Shown here in pieces: positions 356 through 28,068 of a DNA stretch of 28,175 nucleotides. Under the pieces are notes generated by a model, which saw only the letters and a list, made by a program, of their open reading frames with translations, was not told where the DNA came from and ran no database searches. The DNA comes from Paucimonas sp. (GTDB lineage: Bacteria > Pseudomonadota > Gammaproteobacteria > Burkholderiales > Burkholderiaceae_D). The stretch's first letter is position 1, and the number at the start of each line of letters is the position of its first letter. Location: the NCBI GenBank assembly GCA_029266815.1, contig JAQSWC010000005.1:1-28175 (forward strand). Reading direction: 5' to 3'. The position numbers and the translations under genes were made by a program.

Positions 356-2290
356 GTGGCTTTGCCAGTAGTTCGCAGGAACTATCCAGTTTATACTGCG
401 CCATTTCAAAATAACGCAGGCAATGCCAGGTCAAGCGCACTTTTGCCCCTGCCGCCATCGGTGACTGCTCTTCGCACTCCTCTTTCTTTCATTGCGATCC
501 TGCGATCGAGCATTGCGCTGGTCGCCGTCATTATCGGGATATGGGTCCAACTTTCATCGTCAGCCGCGTCATTCCGATTTGCCGATGAGTGGCTGCGCGA
601 TCGGCTCGTCCGAATGCATGCGTCTTTCGTACCGGAAGAACGAGTCATTCTGGTCGATATCGACGAAGCGAGCTTGTCTTCGTTCGGCCCCTGGCCATGG
701 CCGCGAGCTCGCCTGGCGGAACTGGTCGAGCACCTGATCGGCACCTACTCAGCGCGGGCGGTAGCGCTCGATCTGGTCTTTCCTGAGCCGGCAGATCATG
801 AAGGAGACGCTCGGCTGGCGATGTTGGCACAACATGGCCCGGTTGTACTTGCACAGGCATTTGACTATGCCACCCGCCCTGTTGCCTTACGCGTCGGCAG
901 GCTTGGACAGGGCAGCCCGGTTGCAACGCCCGAGGCTGTCGCGGCTCAAGGTTTCATCGCCAATCATGCCGGGCTTGCTGAGGCGTCGCATGTCTCCAAT
1001 ATCGGTGTCATTCCCGATCCGGACGGCACATTACGGCGCCTTCCAGTCATCACCGCATTCGAGGGCCAGCATTACCCCACGCTGTCGCTGTCCCTCACAC
1101 GCGTCGCTCAGGTGGCGCCGCGCCTGCCGGATGAGCAGACAGGACTGACTCGCATCCCCTACGCACGAACCTGGGACAGTTATACGGTCATACCAGCCGC
1201 CAATGTTCTGCACGGTCAGGCACCGGCCGATCTTCTCAAAGGCAAGCTCGTTATCATCGGATCGTCCTCTCTTGGGTTGAGCGACCGGGTTTCAACGCCG
1301 CTCGATCCGCTCACCAGCGGCATGCTGGTGCATGCCGCAATGACTTCGCACTGGCTCGACCTTCAGCAAGGAACCGCGCCGGCACAGTGGCCGGGGAAGG
1401 CGATTGCGGTCATCTTTGCGATTGTGGCCACCTTGTTACTCATGTACTGCCTGTCGCGCCTCTCCGCTGTAATGAACGCATGCCTGCTGGGCGGGCTGTT
1501 TGTAGGCTGGATCGGACTGGCTTACCTGATCGCTCCGCACGATCCCGTATTTTCACCGACCGGCCCGCTGGCCGTACTGCTATTCCTGATGGCGATTGCG
1601 GTACCCGTGCACTGGCAACTCTCCCAGCGCAGGTCGCGAAGACTGCTCGGCACACTCAAGCAATATGTCGCCACTGCGGTCGTCGATGAACTGCTGCGGC
1701 TCGACCTCAAGGATCCACTTGCACCTCGGCATCTTCATGTAACCACTCTGATCGCGGACATGGAAGGCTATACCACCCACGTGGAAGCGTTGCATATGGA
1801 TCACGCTGCCGCACTTACACGCGATTTCCTCGGCTGCCTGACACGACCAGTGCTGGAGTGTCGTGGCACGCTCGACAAATTTACCGGAGACGGCCTGGTG
1901 GCTTTCTGGGGGGCCCCGCTACCGGTTGATGACCATGCCGATCTTGCTCTCGACGCGGCACAAGGCATTGTCCGGGAAGTCCGGCGGTTCAACGATGCAA
2001 GGGAAACACTTGGACTGTCGCGCCTTCGAGTGCGCATCGGCATCGAGAGCGGCGTAGCCATGGCCGGCGATTTTGGATCTGCCTCGCGCAGCATCTACAC
2101 GGCTGTCGGTGACAGCGTTAACACCGCATCGAGACTGGAATCGATCGCGAAGAACATGCCTCACGACGTCATCATTGGTGCCGGCACGGCCGTACTGGCG
2201 AAACGCCATGCGCTCGCCTATCTCGGGGAAGTGACTCTACGCGGCAAGGAAAAGCCGACCAGGCTCTATACGCTGGAAGAACCGACATGA
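356..2290 (+). CDS. CHASE2-domain membrane class III adenylate/guanylate cyclase
   Basis: N-terminal TM, then CHASE2 motifs (ILVDIDEASL, WPWPRARLA, DLVFPEP, PDPDG.LRR), three TMs and the cyclase core (ADMEGYT, DKFTGDG, YTAVGDSVNTASRLE). GTG 356 has an AGGA SD; GTG 461 is an alternative start. Confidence 0.92.
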   Translation: MALPVVRRNYPVYTAPFQNNAGNARSSALLPLPPSVTALRTPLSFIAILRSSIALVAVIIGIWVQLSSSAASFRFADEWLRDRLVRMHASFVPEERVILVDIDEASLSSFGPWPWPRARLAELVEHLIGTYSARAVALDLVFPEPADHEGDARLAMLAQHGPVVLAQAFDYATRPVALRVGRLGQGSPVATPEAVAAQGFIANHAGLAEASHVSNIGVIPDPDGTLRRLPVITAFEGQHYPTLSLSLTRVAQVAPRLPDEQTGLTRIPYARTWDSYTVIPAANVLHGQAPADLLKGKLVIIGSSSLGLSDRVSTPLDPLTSGMLVHAAMTSHWLDLQQGTAPAQWPGKAIAVIFAIVATLLLMYCLSRLSAVMNACLLGGLFVGWIGLAYLIAPHDPVFSPTGPLAVLLFLMAIAVPVHWQLSQRRSRRLLGTLKQYVATAVVDELLRLDLKDPLAPRHLHVTTLIADMEGYTTHVEALHMDHAAALTRDFLGCLTRPVLECRGTLDKFTGDGLVAFWGAPLPVDDHADLALDAAQGIVREVRRFNDARETLGLSRLRVRIGIESGVAMAGDFGSASRSIYTAVGDSVNTASRLESIAKNMPHDVIIGAGTAVLAKRHALAYLGEVTLRGKEKPTRLYTLEEPT

Positions 2291-3504
2291 AGCGGCTCTT
2301 TAATTTGCCATTAGCGCTTATGCTGATATTGTCCGGCAGCGTATACGCCGATGCCGCCGAGGACCAGCAGGATCTCTACCTTGATGCGATGCGTTCGCTC
2401 TCGGAGGGTCGCCAAGCCGAGGCCACCGACATGCTGACACGCATGATCGAACAGGAACCTCAGCATGCAGGCGCTTGGCTGGATCTTGCCATCCTGCAGT
2501 GCCGGTTGGGTCATGCAGACGAGGCCGAGCGGCTGTTCGGTCTGATCGAGTCGCGCTTTGCTCCGCCTCCAGGCATTAGGGAAGTCATTCAAGTCTATAG
2601 AAAGCGCGGCTGCAAGTGGGAGCGAAAGTCACGAAGCTCAGTGTCGCTCGCGCGAGGCAGCGACAGCAACGTCAACCAGGGAGCCACGAATCCCATATTC
2701 AGCATTGGCGGAGGTCCCTCGCCGAGGGAGCTCCAACTGACACCGGAATTTCTTCCACAGCCCGATCAATACACCCTGCTCTCCGCGTCATGGTCGGGTG
2801 ACCTGACGCGAAGCGCACTGGAAGGATTTGCGCACTTCCGGATGCGTCGTAACGACTCGCTGGCGAAATACAACACGGCTACTCTCGCTGCCGGAATAGA
2901 GAAACCCTGGCGTTTCGGTGATTGGAGGGTGCGAGGTACGACAAACGCCAGCCTGATCACGCTTGAAAATCGTCTTTATCAAAAGCAGGCACAGCTCCTG
3001 GCGCGTATCACTCCGCCGGCTTTTCTGCCGGAGCGGTTCGATGTAAACCTGATGACCGGTTTGACGCACGTGAAGTACCAAAGCCTCCTCAACTTCGACA
3101 GCAACACTCTTGAGACAGGAATCCAGCTCGGATATAGCCGTACAAACGCACGATTCCAGGCAAGCGGCGGCTATCTTGTCGACTATGGCAGTGCCAAGCG
3201 CTTGGGAGGAAACAGGTCTGGCTGGTATGCCGGCTTGCAGGGCCAGGCACAAATTCGGGACCGCCTGATTGCGGAGGCAAGCTGGATGAAGCAGCATTGG
3301 GTCGGGGCGACGATCTACTCACCAAACCTGATCGACAAAATCAGAGAGCAGGACATGCAACTCTACCGGGCCGCCCTTATCGTGCCTTTCCGTGACCATC
3401 ACGCACTTCAGCTGGAATGGCGGCGCGTCAAAAACAACGAGAATATCTCGCTTTTTCAATATAATAGCCGCCTGCTGCAGCTGAGCTGGCAGTGGCAGAA
3501 ATGA
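2287..3504 (+). CDS. TPR-containing outer-membrane beta-barrel protein (Slam/DUF560-like)
   Basis: Signal peptide (SVYA-D), two TPR-like helical pairs, a GSDSNVN motif, alternating amphipathic beta-strands and an aromatic C-terminal strand (LQLSWQW). ATGA overlap with the cyclase stop. Confidence 0.75.
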   Translation: MKRLFNLPLALMLILSGSVYADAAEDQQDLYLDAMRSLSEGRQAEATDMLTRMIEQEPQHAGAWLDLAILQCRLGHADEAERLFGLIESRFAPPPGIREVIQVYRKRGCKWERKSRSSVSLARGSDSNVNQGATNPIFSIGGGPSPRELQLTPEFLPQPDQYTLLSASWSGDLTRSALEGFAHFRMRRNDSLAKYNTATLAAGIEKPWRFGDWRVRGTTNASLITLENRLYQKQAQLLARITPPAFLPERFDVNLMTGLTHVKYQSLLNFDSNTLETGIQLGYSRTNARFQASGGYLVDYGSAKRLGGNRSGWYAGLQGQAQIRDRLIAEASWMKQHWVGATIYSPNLIDKIREQDMQLYRAALIVPFRDHHALQLEWRRVKNNENISLFQYNSRLLQLSWQWQK

Positions 3505-3899
3505 CATTTCCGCCAAGCGCCCTTCGGAATACAGGCCGAGGTAACTAGGTCCGCGCAGGGATCGCAAACGGTGGCGGATATGATCTTGAAGTTGCCTGCT
3601 CTTGCTGAAAGGGCATTTATTTCTCAACTGCCTGGTGCCTTCACCTCTACATTGGCTCCCGCCCGTATAAGTTTGCGGCGGGTTCTTGCATTTGGATCCA
3701 TGACGTATCTGTCTGGATGGATGCTCAGGCTGCCATCGGTTACAGATGGAGAGGCCTAGTCTCTTGATTGCAGGCGGATGGAGTGACACCATGCCGATTT
3801 GGGTACCGGGTCGCGGCTTCTGCGCGCACGACGTCGTGAACACAGGCAGCATACCGCTGGCAACACTGAGTCCCTGCCGGCAATTGGAATCTGATTGAG

Positions 3900-4688
3900 A
3901 TGAGCTTGAAAAAACAGGAATTGCGCAATATTGAAGTGAGCGTCGATGCGGATGGCGATGCGCAGCAGTCCGCCATCGCCGCTGAAGTCGCAAATCAGGC
4001 AACGCAAGTTCATCTCCAGGTTCATCTACGCAAGGTTCCCTTGTTCGCGGGACTTACCGCTGAAGAAATGCAACGGGTGAAATCAGAACTGCGCTTTCGC
4101 CAGTATGCAAGGCGCGACGTAGTGCTACAGAAAGGCGGCGCCGGCGACAGCCTGCTTGTTCTGATTTCCGGCCAGTTGCAGGTCATCGACATTACCGAGG
4201 ATGGACGGGCAATTGGCTTGCGCATGCTGTCGCCCGGCGAGTTTTTCGGCGAAATTGCAGTTATTAACGGCTCTACCCGCTCGGCATCCGTCGTCGCATT
4301 GAGTCCGGCCATCGTCGCCTTTCTCCCGGCGGCGACCGCCCTGCACCTTTTTTCGCATTCCCCATCCGTAGCCAGCCAACTGCTCCGTCATCTTGCGCAA
4401 AAAATCCAGCGCGACTCCGAATTCCGCGCGCTGCTAAGCATTAACAACACCTCGAAACGGATCTTCCATTTTCTGCTGCTGCTTAAGCAGAACCAGCCGG
4501 GCAATGTCCAGGCAGTCGAGAATCTGCCCACCCATCAGGACATTGCAAACATGATCAACACCAGCCGCGAAACCGTCACCCGGACACTACTGACACTGGC
4601 GCAGCAGGGGATCATCAGGAAAGATTCCAATCGTCTGATCATCAACGATCCAGAAGCACTTCAGAAGCTCGTTAGCGGCTCGACGTGA
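3900..4688 (+). CDS. Crp/Fnr-family cyclic-nucleotide-binding transcriptional regulator
   Basis: cNMP pocket FFGEIAVINGSTRSASVVAL and HTH THQDIANMINTSRETVTRTL. No N-terminal Fnr cysteines. Confidence 0.93.
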   Translation: MSLKKQELRNIEVSVDADGDAQQSAIAAEVANQATQVHLQVHLRKVPLFAGLTAEEMQRVKSELRFRQYARRDVVLQKGGAGDSLLVLISGQLQVIDITEDGRAIGLRMLSPGEFFGEIAVINGSTRSASVVALSPAIVAFLPAATALHLFSHSPSVASQLLRHLAQKIQRDSEFRALLSINNTSKRIFHFLLLLKQNQPGNVQAVENLPTHQDIANMINTSRETVTRTLLTLAQQGIIRKDSNRLIINDPEALQKLVSGST

Positions 4689-4869: not shown

Positions 4870-6201
4870 ATGGGAACCATTCGCGTCTCCAATCTGGGAA
4901 AGGCATATAAGCAGTACCCAAATCGCTGGTCGCGCCTGGTCGAATGGATCTCGCCTTTCCGTGTTAAACGACACGAGCTGAAATGGGTACTGAAAGATAT
5001 CAACTTCAATATTGCCCCTGGCGAATCGGTCGGCATCATCGGCTATAACGGCGCCGGCAAGAGCACGTTGCTCAAACTGATTACCGGAACTAACCAGCCC
5101 ACCTGCGGCGAGGCCTCGGTAGAGGGGCGCGTCGCTGCCCTGCTTGAACTCGGCATGGGCTTTCATCCTGACTTCACCGGTCGTCAGAACGCCGTCATGT
5201 CAGGCCAGTTGATGGGGCTTAGCGTGGAAGAAATAACTGCGTTGATGCCTCAAATTGAATCCTTCGCCGAGATCGGCGATTATATAGACCAGCCGGTACG
5301 CGTATATTCGAGCGGCATGCAGGTCCGCTTGGCGTTCGCCGCCGCGACTGCAGTGCGGCCCGACATACTGATCGTGGACGAGGCTCTCGCGGTTGGCGAC
5401 GTTTTCTTTCAGCAGAAATGCTTCGAGCGCATTCGCAGTTTTTGCGAGGCCGGCACTACGCTGCTGTTTGTCTCGCATGCAATGAGCGTCGTGTATTCAC
5501 TATGCGACCGCGCAATAATGATTGATGGTGGCCGTCTCGAAATTGACGGCTCACCGCGTGAAGTCATCGACCTCTATAACGCAAAAGTGCTTCAGCGCCA
5601 AAACGGCGCGGATCACGACATGCAGATCGTTACCGGCCGCCACGAAGCCCGGGAAAATGAAACGCCTACGTCATCCGAAGAGCCGCTAGTCGAGATGGAC
5701 GTACCCGATGCACCGGCGATCGGCTCGTTTTCCTCACAAGGCGTGACAATACGTGCAGTGGAAGTGCTGGCCGGTGGCCGCCCGGTGTCAGCGGTTGTCA
5801 GCGATTCTGATGCCACTGTCCGGATCCAGGTGCAATTCGATCAGTCATTCTCCGATCCGCACGTCGGCTTCCAGATTCGAAATGCGATGGGCGAGGCCAT
5901 ATTCATGACCAATACTTATTGCATGCATCGCTCGATCGGTGCGGTGCATGCAGGCGATGCAATTACGATCGAGTTCTCATTCAAGGCCGCTCTGTCACCA
6001 GGAGACTATACGGTGACTACCGGAGTTGCAGACGGCGGGGTGGGCGAAACAACCTTTCGCCGGACGCTGGCACGCTTGCAGGATGCGAGAGCATTCACGA
6101 TACTGAGAAACCTGGATGCAATCCTCTGGCATGGGATCTGCAATCTCGATCCAACCTGCAAGGTCCGACGCACAGGCAGAGAGGCGCCGCATGACGCGTG
6201 A
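4870..6201 (+). CDS. wzt: Polysaccharide ABC exporter ATP-binding subunit with C-terminal Wzt_C carbohydrate-binding domain
   Basis: Walker [10 protein letters not shown], signature [12 protein letters not shown], Walker B LIVDEAL. Wzt-type N-terminus ([13 protein letters not shown]) and C-terminal beta domain ([18 protein letters not shown]). Confidence 0.92.
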
Positions 6202-6814
6202 CGTGGTATGGCAGGAATTCGCTATCGACAAAGCGTTTCGTGCTCACGCAAAAGGCCAGCGCCCGTGCCTGCTATGGTTCACAGGGTTGAGCGGCTCCGG
6301 CAAATCCACGATCGCCTCACTGCTTGAGCAACGCCTGGCGGCAGCCGGCAAGCATACTTATCTACTTGACGGTGACAACGTGCGGCACGGGTTATGTCGA
6401 GACCTCGACTTCACCCTGGAAGACCGCGCCGAGAATATCCGCCGCATTGGCGAAGTCGGAAGGCTGATGGTCGATGCTGGGTTAATGACATTGACGGCCT
6501 TTATCTCGCCTCTCCGTTCCGAACGCAGGATAGCCCGCGAGCTGTTTACCCGCGATGAATTCATCGAGATCTTCGTCGATACCCCGATCGACGTATGCGA
6601 ACAGCGCGACCCTAAGGGCCTATACGGAAAGGCGCGTGCAGGGACGATACGCGATTTCACTGGCATCGACTCCCCTTACGAACAACCCGAATCGCCCGAA
6701 CTGTGTCTCAACACTGTCCGCCACTCCCCGGGAAAGTGCGTGGAACAGATCCTTGCCTATCTAATCCTGCATGGATTTGTAAACCGAAACGCGGCGGACA
6801 TAGCAGAACGTTAA
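6191..6814 (+). CDS. cysC: Adenylyl-sulfate (APS) kinase
   Basis: [44 protein letters not shown]. Start trimmed to ATG 6191 (MTRDVVWQ), which overlaps the wzt stop and has a GAGG SD. Confidence 0.95.
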
Positions 6815-6870
6815 GCCTCGTGCTTTTACGATAAAATCTCGCTTCCCGCGCGCGGGCCGTCAACTCATCA

Positions 6871-7839
6871 ATGCACCTACTTCTCACTACTTCGCGATCC
6901 TTCCTGCTGCTCGATACTAAAAGCGGCGATATACGCTGCATCGAGCGCGGACATGGACTCTATTATGGAATCGCGCACGACGGCGACCATCTGTATGTAG
7001 CCGCGCGCAACCGTTTGGTTTCGTCCGACATTCCTCAGAATGAAGAGCGCGGGGAAATCCGCATCTTCGATCGCATGCTTCGACCATGCGGGTCGCTCCA
7101 GGCGCCGTTCGCCCTGAGAGACCTCCACGAGATAGGCTGGCACCGCGGCAAGCTGTGGGTCACCGCCTCTCATGACAATATGATCGCCATCTTTGATGGC
7201 GCCGCATGGGAACAGTGGTATCCGCTCGGGATGCCAGAAGGAGGCCCCTCGGACATCAACCACTTCAATTCCTTCATGTTCGATGATGACCGCGTGTGGA
7301 TTCTTGCACATAACCGCGGCGCGAGCGAACTGCTCGCCTTTTCATTGGAGACGCGCGAGCTGATCGAAAAAATAGGATTAGGCTACTGTGCGCACAACAT
7401 ATGGCGCGAAAACGGATCATTCTTCACTTGCTCGTCCGCCGAAGGCATGGTGAAAGGTGAAAATGGCTTTTCGCTGGAGACAGGTGGGTTTCCACGAGGC
7501 GCTGCGCACGCTGGGGGCATCCGCTGCATCGGCATATCAGAGGTGGCGGAACGCAAGGCACGGGACTTAACAGTTGGAAAAGTCATCGTCTTTGACGAAG
7601 ACTGGCGACAGGAGAAAGAAATCCACTTGCCCGGCGAAGGACTTATTCTTGACCTGATGCCGCTTCCTCAGGGTTTTTGCCTTGCCCCTGCCTCGAATGC
7701 CGACACGTTCGGCAGGAAATTTTCGGCTTTTATGAAGGGGCTACTTCCTGACCGGTTGCGTCTCCGAGTGGTCACAGCAGCGTACCCATTGGGCTTGCAG
7801 GTAGCGGCCGACCCGCCTTCAACCCAGAGAATGGCCTGA
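6871..7839 (+). CDS. Uncharacterised beta-propeller-like protein (DUF4915/TIGR03032-like; candidate sulfotransferase)
   Basis: Repeated short beta-blade pattern with motifs DLH(86), HFNS(131-134), AHN(H175) and GFPRG..IGIS. No obvious signal peptide. Directly downstream of cysC. Confidence 0.55.
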   Translation: MHLLLTTSRSFLLLDTKSGDIRCIERGHGLYYGIAHDGDHLYVAARNRLVSSDIPQNEERGEIRIFDRMLRPCGSLQAPFALRDLHEIGWHRGKLWVTASHDNMIAIFDGAAWEQWYPLGMPEGGPSDINHFNSFMFDDDRVWILAHNRGASELLAFSLETRELIEKIGLGYCAHNIWRENGSFFTCSSAEGMVKGENGFSLETGGFPRGAAHAGGIRCIGISEVAERKARDLTVGKVIVFDEDWRQEKEIHLPGEGLILDLMPLPQGFCLAPASNADTFGRKFSAFMKGLLPDRLRLRVVTAAYPLGLQVAADPPSTQRMA

Positions 7840-7870: not shown

Positions 7871-8914
7871 ATGAGTCCGTTAAAGCTCATCAAACGATGC
7901 GCTCACAAGCTCGCGTATCGGGTGCTTGGAGAGCACGCTCTCGGCGAAAAGGCGCCCTGGGAGATTCTTTTTCGGGATACAGCGAATGCTGAAGACATCT
8001 TCTACTGCTTCCGGTTGATTCTCGGACGTTCCCCCAACCGCGAAGAATGGAAGGGCCACATGGGCATGGCCGGCCTCGACATCCATGAAGTCGTTCGCAA
8101 CTACTTCAACTCGCTCGAGTTTTCGCGTCGCATCGCGAAACTCCTTGACCGGCGAATCGATCCGAACGTAAAGCTCGTCAAGCTGGACGATTTTTCCATC
8201 TACACTCAAGAATCCGACATTGCAGTCGGAAGATGGGTAGCGGAAGGGCATTACGAGCCGCATGTCACTGCAATTTTCCGGGACCGATTGAGGCAAGGCA
8301 TGCACGTGCTCGACGTCGGGGCCAATATCGGCTATTTCACGATGCTGGCGGCCGCTTTGGTCAGTCAGTCGGGCAGCGTAATGGCGATCGAACCCAATCC
8401 CGACAATGCCAAGCTGCTCGAATCAAGCCGTCGGGCAAACACGTTCGATCATGTAGCAGTGGTACAGGCCGCAGCCGGACATGAAATGGGCCTACTCCTC
8501 CTGAACACGCTGCACAGCAACGGCACGACCGCGGCGCTGTATGACAATTTCGATACGCTTGCGAACGCCCTTACGGTACCGGCTCTACCTATTGATATGC
8601 TCCTTCACCAAAAGCGTAAAGTCGATTTCATCAAGATTGACGTCGAGGGTGCAGAATATAATGCCCTGCTTGGCGCGCGGCACACCATCGAACGCGACCA
8701 CCCGACCATTGTCAGCGAATTCAGCCCAGGCCTGTTAAAAGGGATTTCCGGAGTAACAGGCGCCGAGTATCTGCAGTTCTTGCTCGGATTCGGATACCGC
8801 ATTTCGATTATTGAACAGGATGGCGGGCTTTCACTTTGCGGCAGTGATGTGGAAAAAGTGATGAACGCCTATGTCGCTAGCGGCATCGATCATATCGACC
8901 TTCTGCTAGACTGA
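7871..8914 (+). CDS. FkbM-family methyltransferase with N-terminal DUF4214-like helical domain
   Basis: VLDVGANIGY, EPNPDN and IKIDVEGAE. N-terminal FRLILGRSP..E....F.SLEF segment. Confidence 0.88.
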   Translation: MSPLKLIKRCAHKLAYRVLGEHALGEKAPWEILFRDTANAEDIFYCFRLILGRSPNREEWKGHMGMAGLDIHEVVRNYFNSLEFSRRIAKLLDRRIDPNVKLVKLDDFSIYTQESDIAVGRWVAEGHYEPHVTAIFRDRLRQGMHVLDVGANIGYFTMLAAALVSQSGSVMAIEPNPDNAKLLESSRRANTFDHVAVVQAAAGHEMGLLLLNTLHSNGTTAALYDNFDTLANALTVPALPIDMLLHQKRKVDFIKIDVEGAEYNALLGARHTIERDHPTIVSEFSPGLLKGISGVTGAEYLQFLLGFGYRISIIEQDGGLSLCGSDVEKVMNAYVASGIDHIDLLLD

Positions 8915-8963: not shown

Positions 8964-10229
8964 ATGGATGATTTTTACCGCGCATTCGAAGACCGCCACC
9001 GCGGGTCACGCGACGTGATCAAGTCGCGGCTCCGCGTCTACCTCCCCTTCGTGCGGCCACTTGTAAGCGCGTCTCATGACCCGGTTGCGCTCGATCTCGG
9101 TTGCGGGCGCGGCGAATGGCTGGAGCTCTTGTCCGAGCATGGATTCAGGGCGCGTGGTGTGGATCTCGATGCCGGCATGCTGGCCGCGTGCCGCGAACGT
9201 GGCCTCGATGCAATTCAAGCCGATGCGATCACCACACTACGTTCGCTTGATGCTTCAAGTGTGGCGGTGGTATCGGCTTTTCACGTCGTAGAGCATATTC
9301 CCTTTGAGGCCGCGCGTGAGCTGATTCGCGAATCGCTACGGGTGCTGCATCCCGGAGGCCTGCTAATTCTCGAGACACCCAATCCGGAAAACCTGGTTGT
9401 CGGAACATCGCTGTTTTACCAGGATCCCTCACATGTCAATCCGATTCCGCCCGAATTACTCTCTTTCGCTGTCGAACACGCAGGATTCCCGCGCGTAAAA
9501 ACCGTGCGCCTGCAGGAAGACCCCCTGCTACTCGACGAAGCGCGTCCACCCGGACTGTTCCATGTTTTGTCGGGTGTTAGCCCGGATTACAGTGTGGTGG
9601 CACAGAAGGATGCACCGCCCGCGACATTGGAATTGTTCGAGGCGGCATTTAATACAGAGCACGGACTGACATTACCTTCCCTGTCTGCACGTTATGATGA
9701 CCTGGCGAATCGCCGCGAGGCAGTATTGCGTGCACTTCTTTCAGAAGCGGAAAAAAGACTAGCACAAAGCGATGCTGGTCTCGCCCAGTCGATTGCGCAA
9801 TTGGATAGCCGCCTCTGTCAGGCAGAAACATCCGCGTCTCGTGCCGAAGAACATGCCGCCGCGCTGTACCAGCAGCTTAACGCCGTGCTGCACAGCCGGT
9901 CATGGCGAATGACGGCACCACTGCGGTACGCGGGGCATCAGGCGAGGAGGGTACGTTCGGCTTTTCGTGAAAATCGCGTTAAGAGCGGCACCCTGCGGCG
10001 GATTCGGCCGGCTCTCAAAGCGATGGCGCATGCGGCAAGCAATCGTCCATACCTAAGCAAGCCGCTCTTGGCACTGCTCGCACGATTTCCGTCGTTCAAA
10101 CGCCGCCTGCACGATGCGCTTAAAGAACCTCCTAAAACCATTGCGCCACCTGCCCCTTTGGGACTTTCGCCGCGCTCTGCCCGTTTGCTTGGCAAGCTTA
10201 AGCGCTCCATCGAATCGAAGAGACTGTAA
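8964..10229 (+). CDS. wbdD: WbdD-like chain-terminating methyltransferase with coiled-coil tail
   Basis: FYRAFEDRHRGS..IKSRL.VYLPF N-terminus resembles E. coli O8 WbdD as I recall it. LDLGCGRGEW and FY.DPSH motifs. Heptad-rich segment ending SRSWRMTAPLR. TAATG-coupled to a WbdA-like gene. Confidence 0.75.
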   Translation: MDDFYRAFEDRHRGSRDVIKSRLRVYLPFVRPLVSASHDPVALDLGCGRGEWLELLSEHGFRARGVDLDAGMLAACRERGLDAIQADAITTLRSLDASSVAVVSAFHVVEHIPFEAARELIRESLRVLHPGGLLILETPNPENLVVGTSLFYQDPSHVNPIPPELLSFAVEHAGFPRVKTVRLQEDPLLLDEARPPGLFHVLSGVSPDYSVVAQKDAPPATLELFEAAFNTEHGLTLPSLSARYDDLANRREAVLRALLSEAEKRLAQSDAGLAQSIAQLDSRLCQAETSASRAEEHAAALYQQLNAVLHSRSWRMTAPLRYAGHQARRVRSAFRENRVKSGTLRRIRPALKAMAHAASNRPYLSKPLLALLARFPSFKRRLHDALKEPPKTIAPPAPLGLSPRSARLLGKLKRSIESKRL

Positions 10230-13200
10230 TGCGCATTCTGATTGATCTGCAGGGCGCCCAGACCGAAAGCCGCTTTCGTGGAATCGGCCGTTATTCGCTC
10301 GCGCTGGCAACAGCCATTGCACGCAATGCTGGGCCTCATGAAATCAGCCTCTTGCTCAACGGTGCGCTCAGGCCGAGCATTCCGGATTTGCGTCGAGCCT
10401 TCGCCGGACTGGTGCCCAAGGAGCGCATCCATGTATTTGACGTCCCCCTCCATGTTGCCGAGCACGACGACACCAATTGTTGGCGAGCGCGTGCAGCCGA
10501 GCTTATTCGCGAACAGGTGATCGCGCAGTTGAGTCCGGATGCGGTGCTAATCACGAGCCTGTTCGAAGGTTTCGTGGATGACGCCGTGACGTCAGTGGGA
10601 GCATTTGCGGACGGATCACGTACCGCAGTCATACTCTATGACCTGATTCCACTGCTGAACGCCGACAAGTACTTGAGCACGCCACAACAACGGCGGTATT
10701 ACCATCGAAAAATCGAATCGCTGAAGCGGGCAGCGCTTTTGCTGTCAATCTCGGATTATTCACGCAAAGAAGCGATTGATGCGCTTGACTTCGGTGAAGA
10801 CCATGTAATTGCTATCTCGACGGCAGTCGATCCCGATTTCAAGCCGGACGAGCGCTCCGCCGGGGAAACCGAATTACTGAAGCGGCGCTTAGGCATTTCG
10901 CGCGAAATGGTGCTGTATGCGCCTGGAGGATTCGATGCACGCAAGAACGTCAGTGGCCTAATAGAAGCCTATGCCCTGCTGCCGGCGGAAGTGCGTGCTG
11001 CTCACCAGCTGGTAATAGCCAGTAGTATCGACGAGGCCAGCCGAAGGACGCTGATTTTGGCCGCCCGAAATGCAGGCCTGAACGACGGAGAGCTGGTATT
11101 GACTGGCTATGTGCCCGATCCGGATTTGAGAGCGCTGTACAGCTCGGCGAAGCTTTTCGTTTTTCCTTCCAAACATGAGGGATTTGGGCTACCTGCGCTT
11201 GAAGCGATGGCTTGCGGTGCAGCAGTGATCGGATCCAGCACCACCAGCGTGCCCGAGGTGATTGGCCTGGAAGAAGCGCTGTTTGACCCCTCGTCGCCAC
11301 TATTGATTATGCAGTCCATGAAGCGCGCTCTCGACGACTCTGCGATGCGTGACCGTCTCCGCGAGCATGGACGTATGCAGGCAAGGAAGTTTTCCTGGGA
11401 TACGAGCGCCCAACGCGCACTTGCAGCGATCAAGCAGCGCTTCGGCAAGCCATCTGTGACCGAAACGGCACCCCGGACTGCCAAGCCCCGACTTGCCTTC
11501 GTAACGCCACTTCCTCCGGAACGGACAGGTATTGCCAATTACAGCCGCGAACTGCTGCCCGCGCTGTTGCCGCACTTTGACGTCAAACTAGTCGTCGCCC
11601 AAAACTCCGTCGAGCTGCCGCCTGAACTCTCCAGTCTGCCCTGTCATTCAGCGGAGTGGTTCGCTATTCATGCACGCGAGTTCGATCGCATCATCTATCA
11701 GTTTGGCAACAGCCCCTTTCACAGTCACATGTTCGAGTTGCTGCGCCTGCATCCTGGGGTAGTCGTGCTGCATGATTTCTATCTTTCAGGTGCTTTGGCC
11801 TACGAAGAAACGTCAGGCAACATGCCAGGCGTATGGTCCCGTGCACTCTACGAATCTCACGGGTTCCGCGCACTTCAGGATCGTCGCGCGGACGCCGAAG
11901 GCGCAAAACGCGACTATCCATGCAACTTGGAGGTGCTTCAGAATGCGCGTGGAGTGATTGTGCATTCCGAATACTCCTGCAAGCTCGCGCGGCAATGGTA
12001 TGGTGAAAACGCCGCTTCGAGGTGGACCGTGATACCGCATCTCCGCTCGCCTGCTGTCCAGATAGGCCGCACAGAAGCTCGTGCGAAGCTGGGCTTGCCG
12101 GAGGCAGCGTTCATCGTCTGCAGCTTTGGTTTCATCGATCCAACAAAACAGACCCTAAGGCTGGTCGATGCCTGGCTAGCCTCTAAGCTGGCTAAGGACT
12201 TGCATTGCGAGCTGATTCTGGTGGGGGAGAATCATGGCGGAAGCTATGGCCGCGAACTCGCCGCACGACTTGATGCAAGCGGCGCTCGGATCCGGATCAC
12301 CGGTTGGACCGACGATTCTGCCTATCAGCTATACCTTCAGGCGGCAGATGCTTGTGTGCAGCTACGCAGTTCTTCGCGCGGCGAAACCTCGGGCGCAGTG
12401 CTGCATTGTCTGAACCACGGTCTGCCAACCATAGTGAACGCGAATGGCTCGATGGCCGATCTCGCCGATGAAGCAGTTCTCAAGCTCCCTGACGCGTTCG
12501 AGGACAAAGAGCTGGTCTGCGCACTGGAGGGATTGCGCACAAGCCCGGATACCCGTGCAAAACTTGCTCATAATGCCCGCAGCCTCATCCGGACCCGCCA
12601 CAGTCCCGCCGAGTGCGCGCGCCTGTATGCGGAAGCGATTGAACGTTTTCATGAAAATTCCCGCACCGATGTTGATTCACTGATCAATAAGGTCGCTGAT
12701 CTTTCCGAGCTGCCTGCCGAGGATCTGTCGCTGCAGCAAATTGCCCGCGCCATCGCTGGTTCTTGTGCAGAACAGCCGCGCCTGAAACAATTGCTGGTCG
12801 ACGTGTCGGCAGTCTCCCGCCAAGATCTGCGCACGGGCATCGAGCGCGTAGTACGAGCCCAGCTGGGTGCATTGCTGAAGGCGCCTCCGCATGGCTGGCG
12901 AGTGGAACCGGTCGCATTGACATCGGAGGGCGGCACTCTGCACTACCGGTATGCGCGCACCTATGCCGCCCGACTTCTTGATATCGAATCGCCCCTTGCG
13001 GACGAACCGGTGGACATCTACGCGGGCGATGTTTTTTATTCTCCTGATCTTTATCCCTCTGGTGTCATCGACGCTGCCCACGGCGGGATCTACGAAGACT
13101 GGCGTGCGCACGGGGTGGACATTAATTTCCTCGTTCACGACATCCTGCCGTTGCAGCGTCCGGAATTTTTCCCCAGGGGTGCGGAGCAGGGACATGCGGC

Positions 13201-14059
13201 CTGGCTTGACTGCGTGGCCCGTCATTCGGACCGCTTGGTCTGCATATCGCATGCCGTTGCGACTGAAGTCAGACAATGGCTGGAGAAACAGGAACATCCC
13301 TGCAAGGCGTACTTACAGTATGCGGTAATTCATCATGGTGCGGACATCGAAGCACCCTCCCCAAGCGCCGGAATGCCACCTGACGCGGACCGTGTCGTTT
13401 CCCGGATTTCCGCCGCGCCTAGCTATCTGATGGTTGGCACAATCGAACCGCGCAAGGGCCATCTGCAGGCAATCAGCGCCTTCGAGCAGCTGTGGGCATC
13501 CGGCGCGGACGTCAATCTCGTGATTGTTGGCAAGGAAGGCTGGACGCATCTTCCCGACGAAGAGCGCCGTACAATTCCGCAGATCGTCGCACGCCTGCGC
13601 TCGCATCCCGAGCTGGGCCGCAGGCTGTTCTGGCTTCAGGGCGTCAGCGATGAATACCTTCAACGCATCTATGCGGCATGCACTGCCCAGTTGTTCGCGA
13701 GCGAAGGCGAAGGTTTTGGCCTGCCGTTGATCGAAGGCGCGCAGGTTGGCTTGCCGCTCATTGCACGTGATCTTCCTGTATTCCGGGAAATCGCAGGCGA
13801 TCACGCTTTTTATTTTGACGGACTAGATCCCACCCGGATTGCTGATGCTGTGCGCGAATGGATGAGGTTGCAGGAAGCAGACCGCACTCCGTCAGTCGCC
13901 GGAATGGAATGGCGCTCCTGGGCCCAGAATGCCCAGGAGCTTGCGGCCATCCTGCTCGGCGACCGGCAGGACAGTACCAATTCGCAGGCAGGTAGCGACC
14001 TGCAAAGTGCCGTTGTGCCAGTCCGCGGCGGCAGTCTGCCAACCTTCATGGAGAAATGA
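10229..14059 (+). CDS. wbdA: WbdA-like polymerase with three GT4 glycosyltransferase domains
   Basis: MRILIDLQGAQTESRFRGIGRYS start as in O8 WbdA/MtfA. Three GT-B modules: HEGFGLPALEA, RGETSGAVL and GEGFGLPLIE. Confidence 0.8.
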   Translation: MRILIDLQGAQTESRFRGIGRYSLALATAIARNAGPHEISLLLNGALRPSIPDLRRAFAGLVPKERIHVFDVPLHVAEHDDTNCWRARAAELIREQVIAQLSPDAVLITSLFEGFVDDAVTSVGAFADGSRTAVILYDLIPLLNADKYLSTPQQRRYYHRKIESLKRAALLLSISDYSRKEAIDALDFGEDHVIAISTAVDPDFKPDERSAGETELLKRRLGISREMVLYAPGGFDARKNVSGLIEAYALLPAEVRAAHQLVIASSIDEASRRTLILAARNAGLNDGELVLTGYVPDPDLRALYSSAKLFVFPSKHEGFGLPALEAMACGAAVIGSSTTSVPEVIGLEEALFDPSSPLLIMQSMKRALDDSAMRDRLREHGRMQARKFSWDTSAQRALAAIKQRFGKPSVTETAPRTAKPRLAFVTPLPPERTGIANYSRELLPALLPHFDVKLVVAQNSVELPPELSSLPCHSAEWFAIHAREFDRIIYQFGNSPFHSHMFELLRLHPGVVVLHDFYLSGALAYEETSGNMPGVWSRALYESHGFRALQDRRADAEGAKRDYPCNLEVLQNARGVIVHSEYSCKLARQWYGENAASRWTVIPHLRSPAVQIGRTEARAKLGLPEAAFIVCSFGFIDPTKQTLRLVDAWLASKLAKDLHCELILVGENHGGSYGRELAARLDASGARIRITGWTDDSAYQLYLQAADACVQLRSSSRGETSGAVLHCLNHGLPTIVNANGSMADLADEAVLKLPDAFEDKELVCALEGLRTSPDTRAKLAHNARSLIRTRHSPAECARLYAEAIERFHENSRTDVDSLINKVADLSELPAEDLSLQQIARAIAGSCAEQPRLKQLLVDVSAVSRQDLRTGIERVVRAQLGALLKAPPHGWRVEPVALTSEGGTLHYRYARTYAARLLDIESPLADEPVDIYAGDVFYSPDLYPSGVIDAAHGGIYEDWRAHGVDINFLVHDILPLQRPEFFPRGAEQGHAAWLDCVARHSDRLVCISHAVATEVRQWLEKQEHPCKAYLQYAVIHHGADIEAPSPSAGMPPDADRVVSRISAAPSYLMVGTIEPRKGHLQAISAFEQLWASGADVNLVIVGKEGWTHLPDEERRTIPQIVARLRSHPELGRRLFWLQGVSDEYLQRIYAACTAQLFASEGEGFGLPLIEGAQVGLPLIARDLPVFREIAGDHAFYFDGLDPTRIADAVREWMRLQEADRTPSVAGMEWRSWAQNAQELAAILLGDRQDSTNSQAGSDLQSAVVPVRGGSLPTFMEK

Positions 14060-16066: not shown

Positions 16067-18283
16067 ATGTCAAAGCCACAATTTTATCAGCAGGCCGATA
16101 TTCTGCCGCCTTCCGCTTCCGCAGTTACCAGCTTCCGAAACTCTTTCGCTTTCTTCTTCCTGCTGTCCACCTGCGTCCTGCTGGTAGCGTGGCGCTCTTT
16201 TCATCTCACGGCCGAGACGCTGGGTGTCCCCTTCACCTATCAGGAAGGCGATGTGGTCGTCGTGCTCATGCACATCAAGGGTTTGCTTCAGGACGGCTGG
16301 CCGACGACAGTCTCACATCTGTCTGCCCCCTTCGTCTATCCAGCCGCTGCCTTTCCACATATGACCAGCACCGACTGGCTGGTCATGAAGGCCATTTCCT
16401 TCTTCACTTCGGATCCGGGGCTTGTCCTCAATGTGTTCTTCCTTTTCACACTGGTGGCAAGTGCATGGTCTTCCGCATACGCTGCATACCAATTGCGCCT
16501 GTCGCGCGGCGTCGCGTTCGGCATAGGCGTGCTGTATGCCTTCCTGCCCTTTGCGTTGATCCGCAACGTCCATCATCTGAACCTGGTCTACTACCTCGTC
16601 CCACTGCTATGTCTGCTGGCAGTCGTCATAGCAGGGCGTGGTGAAGGAATACGCTATCCGAGGCAAGCAACATTCATTGGACTCGCCGCCTGCTGTGCAC
16701 AGGGTTTTGATTACATCTATTTCAGCTACTTCGCTGCCCTGCTGTTCGGCGTCGCTGCACTAATTGCTTGGCGGCGTGGCGAGAGGGCAGCACTCAGGCT
16801 CCCTTTGTTGGCCATAGCGCTCATCTGCGTTTCGACGGCAATTAACCTCTTTCCCGCCTATCGTAGCTGGCAGGCTGAAGGAAAACCGCCCGAGATGGGA
16901 TACAAATCGATTGCGGAAGCGGAAGTCTACGGTGCCAAGCTCCGCCGCATGATTGCGCCCCACCCCGACAATCCCGTGAGACCCTTGGCAAAATATGCGA
17001 AACGTGACAATCATGCCGGCTTCCCGATTGAAAACGAAAATGTCACTGCACGCCTAGGCCTGTTTGCAGCCTTCGGACTGCTTGTGGTCCTGTTTTCCCT
17101 GCTCCGTACTCACGCGGTTCGTGAGCAGCCCGAACGAGCTGTCCATACGCTTGCTGTGGTGACGTTCCTCGTTATCACTGTCGGTGGACTGGGCGCAGTC
17201 ATCAATCTCGTTGGCACGCCGGATATACGAGCCTACAACCGTTTCTCCGTCTACCTGGCATTCCTTGTCCTGGCTGCAGCCGGATTTTGGCTACAGCGCA
17301 GATTTCTCAGCCCGCATCGTTGGCGTCGGCTTTCCGCTTATGCACTGGCAGGTAGCTTCGCTTTATTCAGCCTCTATGACCAACTACTCGATGCACGTTT
17401 CTTCGTAGCGAAACAGGGCGAGAATTTAACGCGCATAAAAGGCGAAAAAACCGCGGTACAAAATCTGGAGCGGGCCTTACCCGACAACGCTGCAGTTCTG
17501 CAATTACCTCTTACCGGTTATCCCCCTATCCATGTCTTTCATCAGATGCTTTCGTACGACCATGGCCGGCCGGCGATATGGTCTACGCGTCTACGGTGGA
17601 GTTGGCCGTCGCTAACCGAACGCCATCGCTCGTGGCAGAATCGGCTGGCCGCACTTCGAGGGATTGCATTTTTGGAAGGCGCCGCATTGTCCGGCTTTGA
17701 TGCAATCTGGATCGACCGCGCGGCGTATGCTGACAGCGGGCAGAAGCTACTGGCCGATCTCCTCCATGAACACGTGCGGAAAATCGATACCGGCAACGAA
17801 CGGTATATAGCGCTCGACTTGCGCGCCTACTCTGCCACGCTAAAGACTGACATGGGCGAAGCCACTTTCCGCGAACAAGCAAAAGTTCTCTTGGGTAACG
17901 ACATGCTAGTTAAGTGGGCCAAGGGATTTTACGATGAAGAACGTAACCAGGAAGGGCGTCCTTTCCGCTGGGTGAAAAACAAGGCAGACCTCATTGTTCA
18001 CAATGCAGGCGATAATCACGCCGCCTCCTGCATCAGCTTCGCCGTTGCGGCGCCGCACTCAGGAATAATTGAAGTCAGCGGGGCAAACGCTCCCATGAAA
18101 ATTGACGCCACGGCAGTGCCTCAGCCAGTACGTATTTCGGTGCATCTCGAATCAGGAGCGTCTCGTCGCCTTCGGTTCTCAACTGGCATACGGAGGCTGG
18201 ATGCGCCTGGCGACCCAAGAGAGCTATATTTTTTCGTCATGGATTTCACTATGACACCGCAAACCTGCAGGAATGAAACATGA
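16067..18283 (+). CDS. Polytopic membrane protein, putative GT-C-fold (GtrC/YfhO-like) glycosyltransferase
   Basis: About 11-12 hydrophobic segments, an acidic loop after TM1 (QEGD), motifs IRAYNRFSVY, LYDQ, QLP...YP and LRWS, and a large C-terminal periplasmic domain. Heads an operon containing gtrA/gtrB-like genes. Confidence 0.6.
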   Translation: MSKPQFYQQADILPPSASAVTSFRNSFAFFFLLSTCVLLVAWRSFHLTAETLGVPFTYQEGDVVVVLMHIKGLLQDGWPTTVSHLSAPFVYPAAAFPHMTSTDWLVMKAISFFTSDPGLVLNVFFLFTLVASAWSSAYAAYQLRLSRGVAFGIGVLYAFLPFALIRNVHHLNLVYYLVPLLCLLAVVIAGRGEGIRYPRQATFIGLAACCAQGFDYIYFSYFAALLFGVAALIAWRRGERAALRLPLLAIALICVSTAINLFPAYRSWQAEGKPPEMGYKSIAEAEVYGAKLRRMIAPHPDNPVRPLAKYAKRDNHAGFPIENENVTARLGLFAAFGLLVVLFSLLRTHAVREQPERAVHTLAVVTFLVITVGGLGAVINLVGTPDIRAYNRFSVYLAFLVLAAAGFWLQRRFLSPHRWRRLSAYALAGSFALFSLYDQLLDARFFVAKQGENLTRIKGEKTAVQNLERALPDNAAVLQLPLTGYPPIHVFHQMLSYDHGRPAIWSTRLRWSWPSLTERHRSWQNRLAALRGIAFLEGAALSGFDAIWIDRAAYADSGQKLLADLLHEHVRKIDTGNERYIALDLRAYSATLKTDMGEATFREQAKVLLGNDMLVKWAKGFYDEERNQEGRPFRWVKNKADLIVHNAGDNHAASCISFAVAAPHSGIIEVSGANAPMKIDATAVPQPVRISVHLESGASRRLRFSTGIRRLDAPGDPRELYFFVMDFTMTPQTCRNET

Positions 18284-19278
18284 ACCTGAAATCGAAGAAA
18301 GTGCTGGTTACCGGAGCCGACGGCTTTATCGGAAGCCATCTTGTCGAGGCGCTGTTGACACACGGCTGCGATGTCCGCGCATTCGTTTACTACAACTCGC
18401 AGAATAGTTGGGGCTGGCTTGACACTCTGCCTGCCAAAGTCACGCGTACGCTCGATGTATTTGCCGGTGATATACGTGACCCCAATGGTGTGCATGAAGC
18501 GATGGCCGGCTGTGACGTTGTATTTCATTTGGCTGCACTGATTGCAATCCCGTTTTCCTACCATTCGCCAGACTCCTACATCGACACGAACATCAAGGGA
18601 ACTTTGAACGTGCTGCAGGCGGCACGGCGTCTGGGGACGGAGCGCGTATTGCTGACATCAACTTCCGAAGTCTACGGCACCGCGCAATATGCCCCGATCG
18701 ATGAAAAGCATCCTTTTCAGGGCCAGTCGCCCTATAGCGCCACCAAGATCGGTGCAGACCGGCTCGGTGAGTCGTTCTACCGCTCGTTCAATACGCCGGT
18801 CGTCATTGTTCGTCCTTTCAACACCTACGGCCCGCGCCAATCCGCGCGTGCAGTCATCCCGACAGTTATCACGCAACTCCTTTCCGGACAGACCGAACTA
18901 CGCCTGGGTAGTCTGACGCCGACACGTGACTTCAACTACGTAAAGGATACAGCCGCCGGCTTCGTCGCCCTGGCGGAGTCGGATGCCGCCGTCGGCAAGG
19001 AAGTCAATATTGCCACCGGTGTTGAGCACACGATCGGCGACACCGCCAGGATATTGATCGAAGAACTAAATCCGGAAGCGCGCATCGTCACCGATGAGCA
19101 ACGCCTTCGCCCTGATGCTTCCGAGGTCTTCCGCCTGATCGGCGACAACACTCAAATCACCACGCTGACGCCGTGGAAACCGCAGTACGACCTGCACGCG
19201 GGCCTACGCGACACCATCGCCTGGTTCCGTCAGCCTGAGAACCTGGCCCGCTACAAAGCCTGGTTATACAACCTGTAG
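18280..19278 (+). CDS. legB: NAD-dependent nucleotide-sugar 4,6-dehydratase, LegB-like
   Basis: GADGFIG, YNSQNSWGWLD, HLAALIAIPFSY, TSTSEVYG, YSATK and RPFNTYGPRQSARAVIP. Confidence 0.78.
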   Translation: MNLKSKKVLVTGADGFIGSHLVEALLTHGCDVRAFVYYNSQNSWGWLDTLPAKVTRTLDVFAGDIRDPNGVHEAMAGCDVVFHLAALIAIPFSYHSPDSYIDTNIKGTLNVLQAARRLGTERVLLTSTSEVYGTAQYAPIDEKHPFQGQSPYSATKIGADRLGESFYRSFNTPVVIVRPFNTYGPRQSARAVIPTVITQLLSGQTELRLGSLTPTRDFNYVKDTAAGFVALAESDAAVGKEVNIATGVEHTIGDTARILIEELNPEARIVTDEQRLRPDASEVFRLIGDNTQITTLTPWKPQYDLHAGLRDTIAWFRQPENLARYKAWLYNL

Positions 19279-19290
19279 GAGCTTTAACTC

Positions 19291-20001
19291 ATGAGAGCAA
19301 TCATCCTTGCAGGCGGTAAAGGCACTAGGCTACGCCCATACACGACGCTGATTCCCAAGCCGCTGGTGCCGCTCGGCGGCAAGTACTCGATCCTCGAGAT
19401 CATCCTGATGCAGCTGAAGCGCAACGGCTTCACGCACGTCACGCTCGCGGTCAACCATCTGTCGAACCTGATTATGGCTTACTTCGGCGATGGCAGCAGG
19501 CTGGGATTGAAGCTTGACTATTCGCTAGAGGAAGGCGAACTTAGTACGATTGGCCCACTGACGCTGATCGACGATCTGCCAGAAAATTTCCTAGTGATGA
19601 ACGGCGATATCCTGTGTGATCTCGACTATCGTGCGTTTTTCAGTCGCCATATCGAGACAGATAGCCAAATCTCCGTGTCCGCCTTCCGGCGGCAGGTCAA
19701 GATAGATTTCGGTGTGCTGCGCTACGATGAATCGGGGCGATTGACAGCCTTCCAGGAAAAACCGGTCTACGATTTCGACGTCAGCATGGGTATCTATTGC
19801 ATCAACCGCGCTGTGATAGAGGCACTGCCCCGAGGCAAGACCTATGGTTTTGACAGCCTGATGATGGATGGACTGGCACGTGGACAACGCATCGATATCC
19901 GGCCTTTCTCGGGTTACTGGCTAGACATCGGCCGTCCTGATGATTATCAGCACGCGGACGAGAATTTTGACGAATTGTCGGCGAAACTGGGCATCGAGTG
20001 A
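19291..20001 (+). CDS. Sugar-1-phosphate nucleotidyltransferase (guanylyltransferase-like, no CBS domains)
   Basis: ILAGGKGTRLRPYT..PKPL, VMNGD, FQEKP and WLDIGRPDDY. AGGAG SD. Confidence 0.88.
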   Translation: MRAIILAGGKGTRLRPYTTLIPKPLVPLGGKYSILEIILMQLKRNGFTHVTLAVNHLSNLIMAYFGDGSRLGLKLDYSLEEGELSTIGPLTLIDDLPENFLVMNGDILCDLDYRAFFSRHIETDSQISVSAFRRQVKIDFGVLRYDESGRLTAFQEKPVYDFDVSMGIYCINRAVIEALPRGKTYGFDSLMMDGLARGQRIDIRPFSGYWLDIGRPDDYQHADENFDELSAKLGIE

Positions 20002-27923: not shown

Positions 27924-28068
27924 GGAGTCAACTACCAACTGAATAAGCTCTTGCAGCAGCACAAGCTGCCAAATTGAGCGGTTGTTAGGCTTGTACAGCT
28001 ATGTCTAGGCAAGGCAGGATGTGCAAATTGCCGCCGAACCACGTAAGCCATTGAATCAAAAGCTTTTA

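Follow-up and report, generated by a model that had tools for sequence, protein, structure and literature searches.

A wzt- and cysC-linked beta-propeller of the DUF4915/TIGR03032 superfamily as a candidate capping sulfotransferase of O-polysaccharide synthesis

Organization of the locus

The subject of this study is a beta-propeller protein encoded at positions 6871-7839 of a 28,175-nucleotide contig from Paucimonas sp. (assembly GCA_029266815.1, contig JAQSWC010000005.1). The whole of this stretch, hereafter the window, is the entire contig C156 of a betaproteobacterial metagenome-assembled genome (MAG) of 2.46 Mb that is 73.7% complete, and it represents an O-polysaccharide locus of the ATP-binding cassette (ABC) transporter type. 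The genes relevant here all lie on the forward strand. The wzt gene (4870-6201) encodes the ABC-transporter ATPase with a C-terminal cap-binding domain (Pfam ABC_tran 78 bits, Wzt_C 98 bits). It is followed by cysC (6191-6814), coding for the adenosine-5'-phosphosulfate (APS) kinase that makes 3'-phosphoadenosine-5'-phosphosulfate (PAPS), and by the propeller gene, whose product is described below, on the basis of a structural model, invariant residues and weak profile matches, as a distant DUF4915/TIGR03032 relative and a candidate capping sulfotransferase. Next come genes for an FkbM-family methyltransferase (7871-8914; Methyltransf_21 79 bits, TIGR01444 105 bits), for a class I methyltransferase with WbdD-like terminator features (8964-10229; 421 aa, methyltransferase domain at residues 42-175) and for a protein with three modules of glycosyltransferase family 4 (GT4), likely the polymerase, with a WbdA-like architecture (10229-14059; three Glycos_transf_1 stretches, 202 bits). 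Judged by eye, the class I methyltransferase probably has a coiled coil at about residues 245-310 and ends in a basic C-terminus.

The cysC product is a canonical APS kinase. Its ATG at 6191 overlaps the wzt stop codon (6199-6201) by 11 nt, and the 207-aa sequence has visible P-loop and FISP motifs and scores 221 bits against Pfam APS_kinase and 298 bits against NCBIfam NF003013 (cut-off 163), bearing out the original prediction, made from this DNA alone, that an APS kinase is embedded in the glycan operon. The assembly has no second APS kinase. The same prediction saw no classical PAPS-dependent sulfotransferase in the window, and this agrees with our searches: a six-frame search of the whole assembly, the window included, gave no match to Sulfotransfer_1, _2 or _3, and a Pfam scan of the 20 main window open reading frames (ORFs) gave none to these families either. 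Sulfotransferases and CysD/CysH were likewise not found in the rest of the MAG, but because the assembly is only 73.7% complete, absence beyond the window is weak evidence and we do not use it. Two places in which a sulfotransferase might be hidden were considered and rejected. The 738-aa ORF at 16067-18283 is a polytopic membrane protein with no family match and with no homologue in the other 45 loci (E <= 1e-5), and the C-terminal half of the 421-aa methyltransferase appears to consist of the coiled coil and the basic tail.

Fold and conservation of the propeller protein

The propeller ORF encodes 322 aa. Its AlphaFold2 model (mean predicted local distance difference test, pLDDT, 88) has 24 strands forming six blades. 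The core corresponds to residues 1-270; the variable tail includes a stretch, residues 295-322, for which model confidence is very low (pLDDT <50). Since residue 2 is already within strand 1, there is no signal peptide. The model thus agrees with the earlier description of a propeller-like sequence lacking an evident signal peptide, and the motifs given with that description (DLH86, H131-F-N133-S, AH147N, AH175N and PR209G) are all where they had been placed: DLH at residues 84-86, HFNS at 131-134, AHN at 146-148 and again at 174-176, and PRG at 208-210.

Among the candidates scored, 256 relatives were found at E <= 0.001, nearly all of them unnamed. In 24 homologues sharing 48-70% identity, D84, H86, D102, H131, N133, H147, N148 and H175 are invariant, as are C187-S188-S189, F207-P-R-G210, E227, R231, D232 and E256. 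When two canonical DUF4915 proteins (318 and 473 bits; 21-23% identity) are added to the alignment, D84, H86, H131, N133, H175, S189, R209, G210 and S223 are invariant throughout. Judging from loop lengths in the model, these nine residues would all lie on one face, in the loops joining strands D-A and B-C, round the central channel. Because its polar residues survive at such low identity and share one face of the channel, this predicted surface looks like an active site. A search of PDB sequences with the family profile returned only chance WD40-like matches.

The protein is a short, divergent branch of the DUF4915/TIGR03032 superfamily. Direct profile comparison places it below the curated cut-offs (20.1 bits against 35 for DUF4915, PF16261; 20.7 against 251.5 for TIGR03032), and DUF4915 hidden Markov model (HMM) matches are weak, occurring in 13 of the 24 members with a best E-value of 5e-8. 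The placement is based instead on the alignment with the two canonical members, on a structure search of the ESM Atlas, in which DUF4915-type clusters matched with template modelling (TM) scores of 0.70-0.81 and the DUF4915 clusters proper with 0.70-0.73, and on a language-model search, in which DUF4915 sets made up 71 of the 100 matches listed (score 0.97). The branch shares both the fold and the invariant motif set with this uncharacterised superfamily. It differs in length, being about 270 aa without the N-terminal extension found in canonical DUF4915 proteins (320-370 aa), and in being tied specifically to wzt and the terminator methyltransferase, unlike DUF4915 at large. In one locus of the wider superfamily (L061), a GT41 gene neighbours DUF4915. 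A literature search on DUF4915, on TIGR03032 and on O-antigens capped with sulfate was without result.

Association with chain termination and export

To place the gene in a pathway we compared 45 related loci and the genomes carrying them. Locus counts were taken from tblastn and HMM coordinates, since crude ORF calling on these GC-rich loci missed the propeller ORF in 13 of them. A gene for a Wzt-type ATPase lies within 2 kb of the propeller in 28 of the 45 loci, and in 19 it is immediately upstream on the same strand. Moreover, the propeller occurs in 35 fused forms, 17 joined to a class I methyltransferase and 16 to ABC_tran plus Wzt_C. Fusions were confirmed as single ORFs in three loci (L021, 701 aa; L018 and L029, 726 aa), and two of the methyltransferase fusions (P0250 and P0256) carry the JGI name 'O-antigen chain-terminating methyltransferase'. 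Such natural fusions imply that the propeller binds Wzt or the methyltransferase. One homologue, P0275 (936 aa), is fused to PF19830 and PF25853 rather than to Wzt or a methyltransferase. In the window, with the order wzt-cysC-propeller-FkbM-methyltransferase-three GT4 modules, the propeller is encoded together with wzt, a probable terminator protein and the likely polymerase, and related loci have the same combination. FkbM homologues adjoin the propeller in nine of them (L025, L026, L031, L032, L034, L035, L037, L039 and L043), and the three-GT4 protein is found downstream of the methyltransferase in most.

The two fusion partners correspond to the terminator and to the cap reader in the paradigm established for Escherichia coli O9a and Klebsiella O3 and O7 (PMC11231755). 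We therefore assign the propeller to chain termination and export coupling, where by analogy it would take the position that the kinase half has in WbdD. WbdD (E. coli O9a, Klebsiella pneumoniae O3) and ORF6 (K. pneumoniae O7) are methyltransferase-kinase chain terminators of the same pathway type. Their loci share with ours the position beside a wzt with Wzt_C and ahead of a multi-GT4 polymerase, and a methyltransferase with a probable coiled coil. In both cases the second module would add an anionic group, and in 17 clusters the propeller forms one protein with the methyltransferase. The difference is that the second module here is a propeller instead of a kinase, and it would add sulfate from PAPS instead of phosphate from ATP. 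The known caps in ABC-transporter-dependent glycan assembly are methyl, methyl-phosphate and 3-deoxy-D-manno-oct-2-ulosonic acid (Kdo); we know of no description of a sulfate cap.

We are fairly confident that the propeller is a catalytic module of the chain-terminating and export-coupling machinery. The same fusions to Wzt or to the terminator methyltransferase could also be read as those of a non-catalytic adaptor or glycan-binding module that would anchor the terminator complex to Wzt or keep hold of the end of the chain, and the propellers that match best in structure, of the YWTD and NHL types, are ligand-binding ones. We regard such a role as improbable. The invariant polar ring of three histidines, an asparagine, an arginine, two serines and an aspartate, kept down to 21% identity, is typical of an active site and not of a docking surface, and an adaptor leaves the association with cysC, described next, unexplained.

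Link to activated sulfate

An APS kinase (E < 1e-30) is present in 42 of the 45 carrier genomes. The background frequency is 36-37%, both in an even sample of the same order (75 of 201 genomes) and within the same family (29 of 80). As related genomes do not count independently, these ratios overstate the statistics. The propeller gene is a rare one, occurring in 3 of 401 and 3 of 81 genomes (both counts include the window's own genome). The three carriers without a strong APS kinase match are small MAGs, one of which has a broken propeller gene: in this Syntrophales MAG (L055:3565-4355) a stop codon splits the gene in two, which could be co-loss or an assembly error.

Physical linkage is less common but varied. 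In 13 of the 45 genomes cysC or cysNC lies within 6 kb of the propeller; one of these loci (L043) comes from an unpublished genome (G032), and without it the count is 12 of 44. Four arrangements are found: a wzt-cysC-propeller tandem as in the window (L013, L022, L025, L027), in Massilia, Duganella and Rugamonas a cysC that lies some 1.9 kb upstream and is divergent, a fusion of CysN and CysC at a distance of 1-5 kb downstream (L031, L035, L043) and a standalone cysC about 5 kb downstream beside an FkbM methyltransferase (L032). This variety of arrangements argues for a functional link between cysC and the propeller. In addition, at an unrelated locus (L062), there is an 11-nt overlap between cysC and a canonical DUF4915 gene (318 bits). 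The surroundings of that gene (780-3904) differ from the wzt context, with a Peptidase_S74 (endosialidase chaperone) domain protein before DUF4915 and an epimerase/dehydratase after it. The co-occurrence with cysC that the original prediction named as a check is therefore borne out, both in the carrier genomes as a whole and at close range.

In 7 of the 13 genomes with an adjacent cysC, including the isolate Massilia frigida CCM 8695, Sulfotransfer_1, _2 and _3 had no match anywhere. Several carrier genomes hold a canonical sulfation module besides the propeller locus: in G002, G004, G007-G010, G012, G015, G017 and G035 a cysC away from the propeller locus adjoins a Sulfotransfer_3 gene, and in four of these (G002, G004, G009 and G012) it is a second copy in addition to the propeller-adjacent one.

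These data bear on two other explanations. First, the propeller might be a chain-termination enzyme with different chemistry, either transferring a non-sulfate group via a covalent histidine or, as a metal-dependent hydrolase or lyase, trimming or editing the chain end, while cysC serves an unrecognised sulfating enzyme of the locus. This explanation accommodates the terminator context, and we hold it to be unlikely but deserving of serious consideration. It leaves unexplained the co-occurrence of cysC in 93% of carriers against 37% in the background, as well as the four independent cysC/cysNC adjacencies and the translational coupling of DUF4915 with cysC, and the cysC-containing loci have no further conserved unknown protein in common that could be the sulfating enzyme. 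As for a metal site, the zinc histidines of PAL propellers come from alternate blades and not from consecutive ones, which we likewise count against it. Second, the propeller might be a sulfatase or a hydrolase of PAPS or of 3'-phosphoadenosine-5'-phosphate (PAP), the alternative named in the original prediction. The propeller fold does serve many hydrolases and the gene adjoins cysC, but it is hard to rationalise why sulfate should be made and removed within one translationally linked cytoplasmic unit. Furthermore, the fusions to the terminator methyltransferase and Wzt point to cap building, and no sulfatase family was matched in Pfam and NCBIfam scans. Such a hydrolase therefore seems very improbable indeed.

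Comparison with arylsulfate sulfotransferases

The original prediction likened the protein to the arylsulfate sulfotransferases (ASSTs). The ASST centre consists of His252, His356, Asn358, Arg374, Thr501 and the sulfated His436 (PMC13426309), and the equivalents in the Desulfitobacterium hafniense enzyme, His220, His283, Asn285, Arg301 and His350, lie at the base of the cavity, where ASST crystal structures show them close together (bioRxiv 10.64898/2026.10.08.757636). We mapped the ASST residues via four ASST-family sequences taken from genomes, one of which was modelled (pLDDT 81). In the models of both the propeller and this ASST homologue, a histidine, an HxN motif, a basic residue and another histidine are found on strands 8, 12, 13 and 16 of 24. 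At the start of strand 8, His149 of the homologue corresponds to H86 of the propeller, which stands two residues ahead of the strand; at the start of strand 12, His224/Asn226 correspond to H131/N133; at the end of strand 13, Arg254, the residue after the strand, corresponds to H147; and at the start of strand 16, His299 corresponds to H175. Ring closure is alike in both models (one C-terminal plus three N-terminal strands), and there is local likeness between the motifs of the homologue and those of the propeller (hHDh/DLHEI, AHVNS/NHFNS and QH-A/QAHN). For the expectation that the histidines converge as in ASST, support comes from the strand topology of the models only, the residues falling on the same ordinal strands.

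The characterised enzymes (E. coli, PDB 3ELQ; D. hafniense; Cpz4, PDB 9KF6) have a six-bladed propeller as their catalytic domain, and our protein has the same six-bladed architecture in its model. There are also clear differences. ASST is periplasmic and has an N-terminal beta-sandwich, whereas the propeller protein has neither beta-sandwich nor signal peptide and is elsewhere fused to cytoplasmic Wzt or methyltransferase; its blades are of about 45 residues against about 70 in ASST; and its presumed donor is PAPS, that of ASST an aryl sulfate. With the enzymes of the Sulfotransfer_1, _2 and _3 families (e.g. NodH, Stf0), the propeller has in common the proposed PAPS donor and the genomic coupling to cysC. 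The fold, however, is entirely different, the propeller being all-beta, without P-loop-like 5'-phosphosulfate-binding (5'-PSB) or 3'-phosphate-binding (3'-PB) motifs and without a match to those families.

Proposed function

Considering the context, the conserved face and the sulfate link together, we tentatively propose that the propeller protein is a cytoplasmic capping enzyme of ABC-transporter-type O-polysaccharide synthesis, namely a PAPS-fed histidine sulfotransferase that makes a sulfate cap. We give this proposal somewhat less than an even chance, as it is founded on association and layout and not on chemistry. According to it, the protein would act with the WbdD-like methyltransferase and Wzt at the point where chain termination is coupled to export. 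PAPS would come from the adjacent CysC, and the sulfuryl group would be taken onto a histidine, with H175 as the candidate carrier. The sulfuryl group would be held by H131/N133, H86, S189, R209 and S223 and then be handed on to the non-reducing end, where a hydroxyl of the terminal sugar would accept it. The cap so formed, sulfated and probably methylated as well, would bring polymerisation to a halt and serve as the signal that Wzt_C recognises. Compared with the interpretation given in the original prediction, the cysC association stands and the histidine layout agrees by topology, while the wzt and terminator context, which is the strongest evidence, had been overlooked.

A number of observations weigh against the proposed sulfotransferase. 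The clustering of the histidines in the propeller is deduced from the strand topology of the model and not from distances. The arginine of ASST (Arg374 in E. coli, after strand 13) has no counterpart, as the propeller has His147-Asn148 at this place and R149 varies; the His147-Asn148 pair is itself not kept in distant members, and the propeller's invariant arginine, R209, is at the start of strand 20, in another blade than the ASST arginine. None of the 24 members matched the Pfam ASST families (PF05935 and PF14269) at E <= 1. Profile comparison was equally negative: hhalign comparisons with ASST alignments of 4 to 14 sequences, made both locally and globally, for 24 to 140 sequences of the family and also with canonical DUF4915 added, gave probabilities of 0.3-0.4%, and the weak local alignments are out of register with the topological mapping. 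No ASST cluster was among the language-model neighbours listed, which are mainly DUF4915 sets, and in structure the protein resembles ASST and Cpz4 no more closely than it does YWTD, NHL, lactonase or PAL propellers. The kinship with ASST suggested by the original prediction thus receives nothing from profiles, where the signal is insignificant, or from the overall fold, where the resemblance is generic. Known ASSTs, to our knowledge, do not use PAPS. As to the genomic evidence, 32 of the 45 loci have no cysC within 10 kb. Finally, in other lineages, among Acidobacteriota, DUF4915 is fused to a canonical Sulfotransfer_3 domain, and such fusions fit a partner or relay role as well as they fit a sulfotransferase role.

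The last point leads to a further possibility, in which the propeller performs the second step of a sulfate relay, the sulfate reaching it by way of a small sulfated carrier or a canonical sulfotransferase instead of PAPS. The model for such a relay is Cpz4, which is cytoplasmic and fed indirectly from PAPS via Cpz8 and Cpz6. This enzyme, which is of the ASST type and belongs to the caprazamycin pathway, adds sulfate to a sugar hydroxyl (PMC13426309). Its existence also means that the statement in the original prediction that no such combination has been described needs a qualifier. Besides the Acidobacteriota fusions, the cysC-Sulfotransfer_3 pairs found elsewhere in several carrier genomes could be seen in this light. 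On the other hand, the seven cysC-adjacent carrier genomes without a match to the three sulfotransferase families searched do not fit, and the window has no polyketide synthase or other carrier-making gene. We therefore consider a relay quite improbable.

It is also possible, though less likely than not, that the sulfotransferase function extends to the whole DUF4915 superfamily. The superfamily would then constitute a novel class of sulfotransferases, cytoplasmic and with a histidine centre like that of ASST, supplied by PAPS either directly or by relay. In it, the wzt-linked branch would install a sulfate cap that Wzt_C reads for export, a signal for chain termination so far undescribed among O-polysaccharides.

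Other features of the contig

Directly upstream of wzt (356-4688) are genes for a CHASE2-adenylate/guanylate cyclase, a TPR protein and a Crp-type regulator that binds cyclic nucleoside monophosphates. The same trio is also upstream of the locus in Massilia, Duganella, Rugamonas and others (L001, L002, L014-L024), and its recurrence ahead of related loci suggests that the O-polysaccharide operon is under cyclic-nucleotide control. Although wzt is present, there is no wzm in the window. A wzm orthologue, 69% identical to that of locus L001, lies beside a GT4 gene on another contig (C59:5297-6079); in relatives, wzm flanks the propeller or wzt.

Beyond the three-GT4 gene the window contains more methyltransferases and then a block for a modified sugar and a polyprenyl-phosphate carrier. 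Here (16067-22517) the 738-aa membrane protein is grouped with four genes, those for a LegB-type 4,6-dehydratase (496 bits), a sugar-1-phosphate nucleotidyltransferase, an epimerase/reductase and a PgfS/ArnC-like polyprenyl-phosphate glycosyltransferase. Together, these genes look like a periplasmic side-branch glycosylation system (Gtr/Pgf/Arn-like). On the reverse strand, the rpoD ORF (25452-27962; 836 aa) has region 1.1 beginning only at residue 219, so that either RpoD carries a long N-terminal extension or translation really begins further downstream. This ORF has a strongly negative AT skew.

Implications

If the proposed function is true, a sulfate cap installed by a propeller enzyme would extend both the range of terminator chemistries and that of the caps read by Wzt_C, and it would give DUF4915/TIGR03032 its first function. 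A further consequence might be a bridge between the ASSTs, which work in the periplasm without PAPS, and a cytoplasmic relative that draws on PAPS. Sugar-sulfating enzymes are, in addition, of practical interest for biocatalysis (PMC13426309). As there are cultured carriers of the propeller gene in Massilia (M. frigida CCM 8695 and Massilia sp. Root351 among them), Duganella (including D. radicis KCTC 22382) and Rugamonas, the idea is directly testable.

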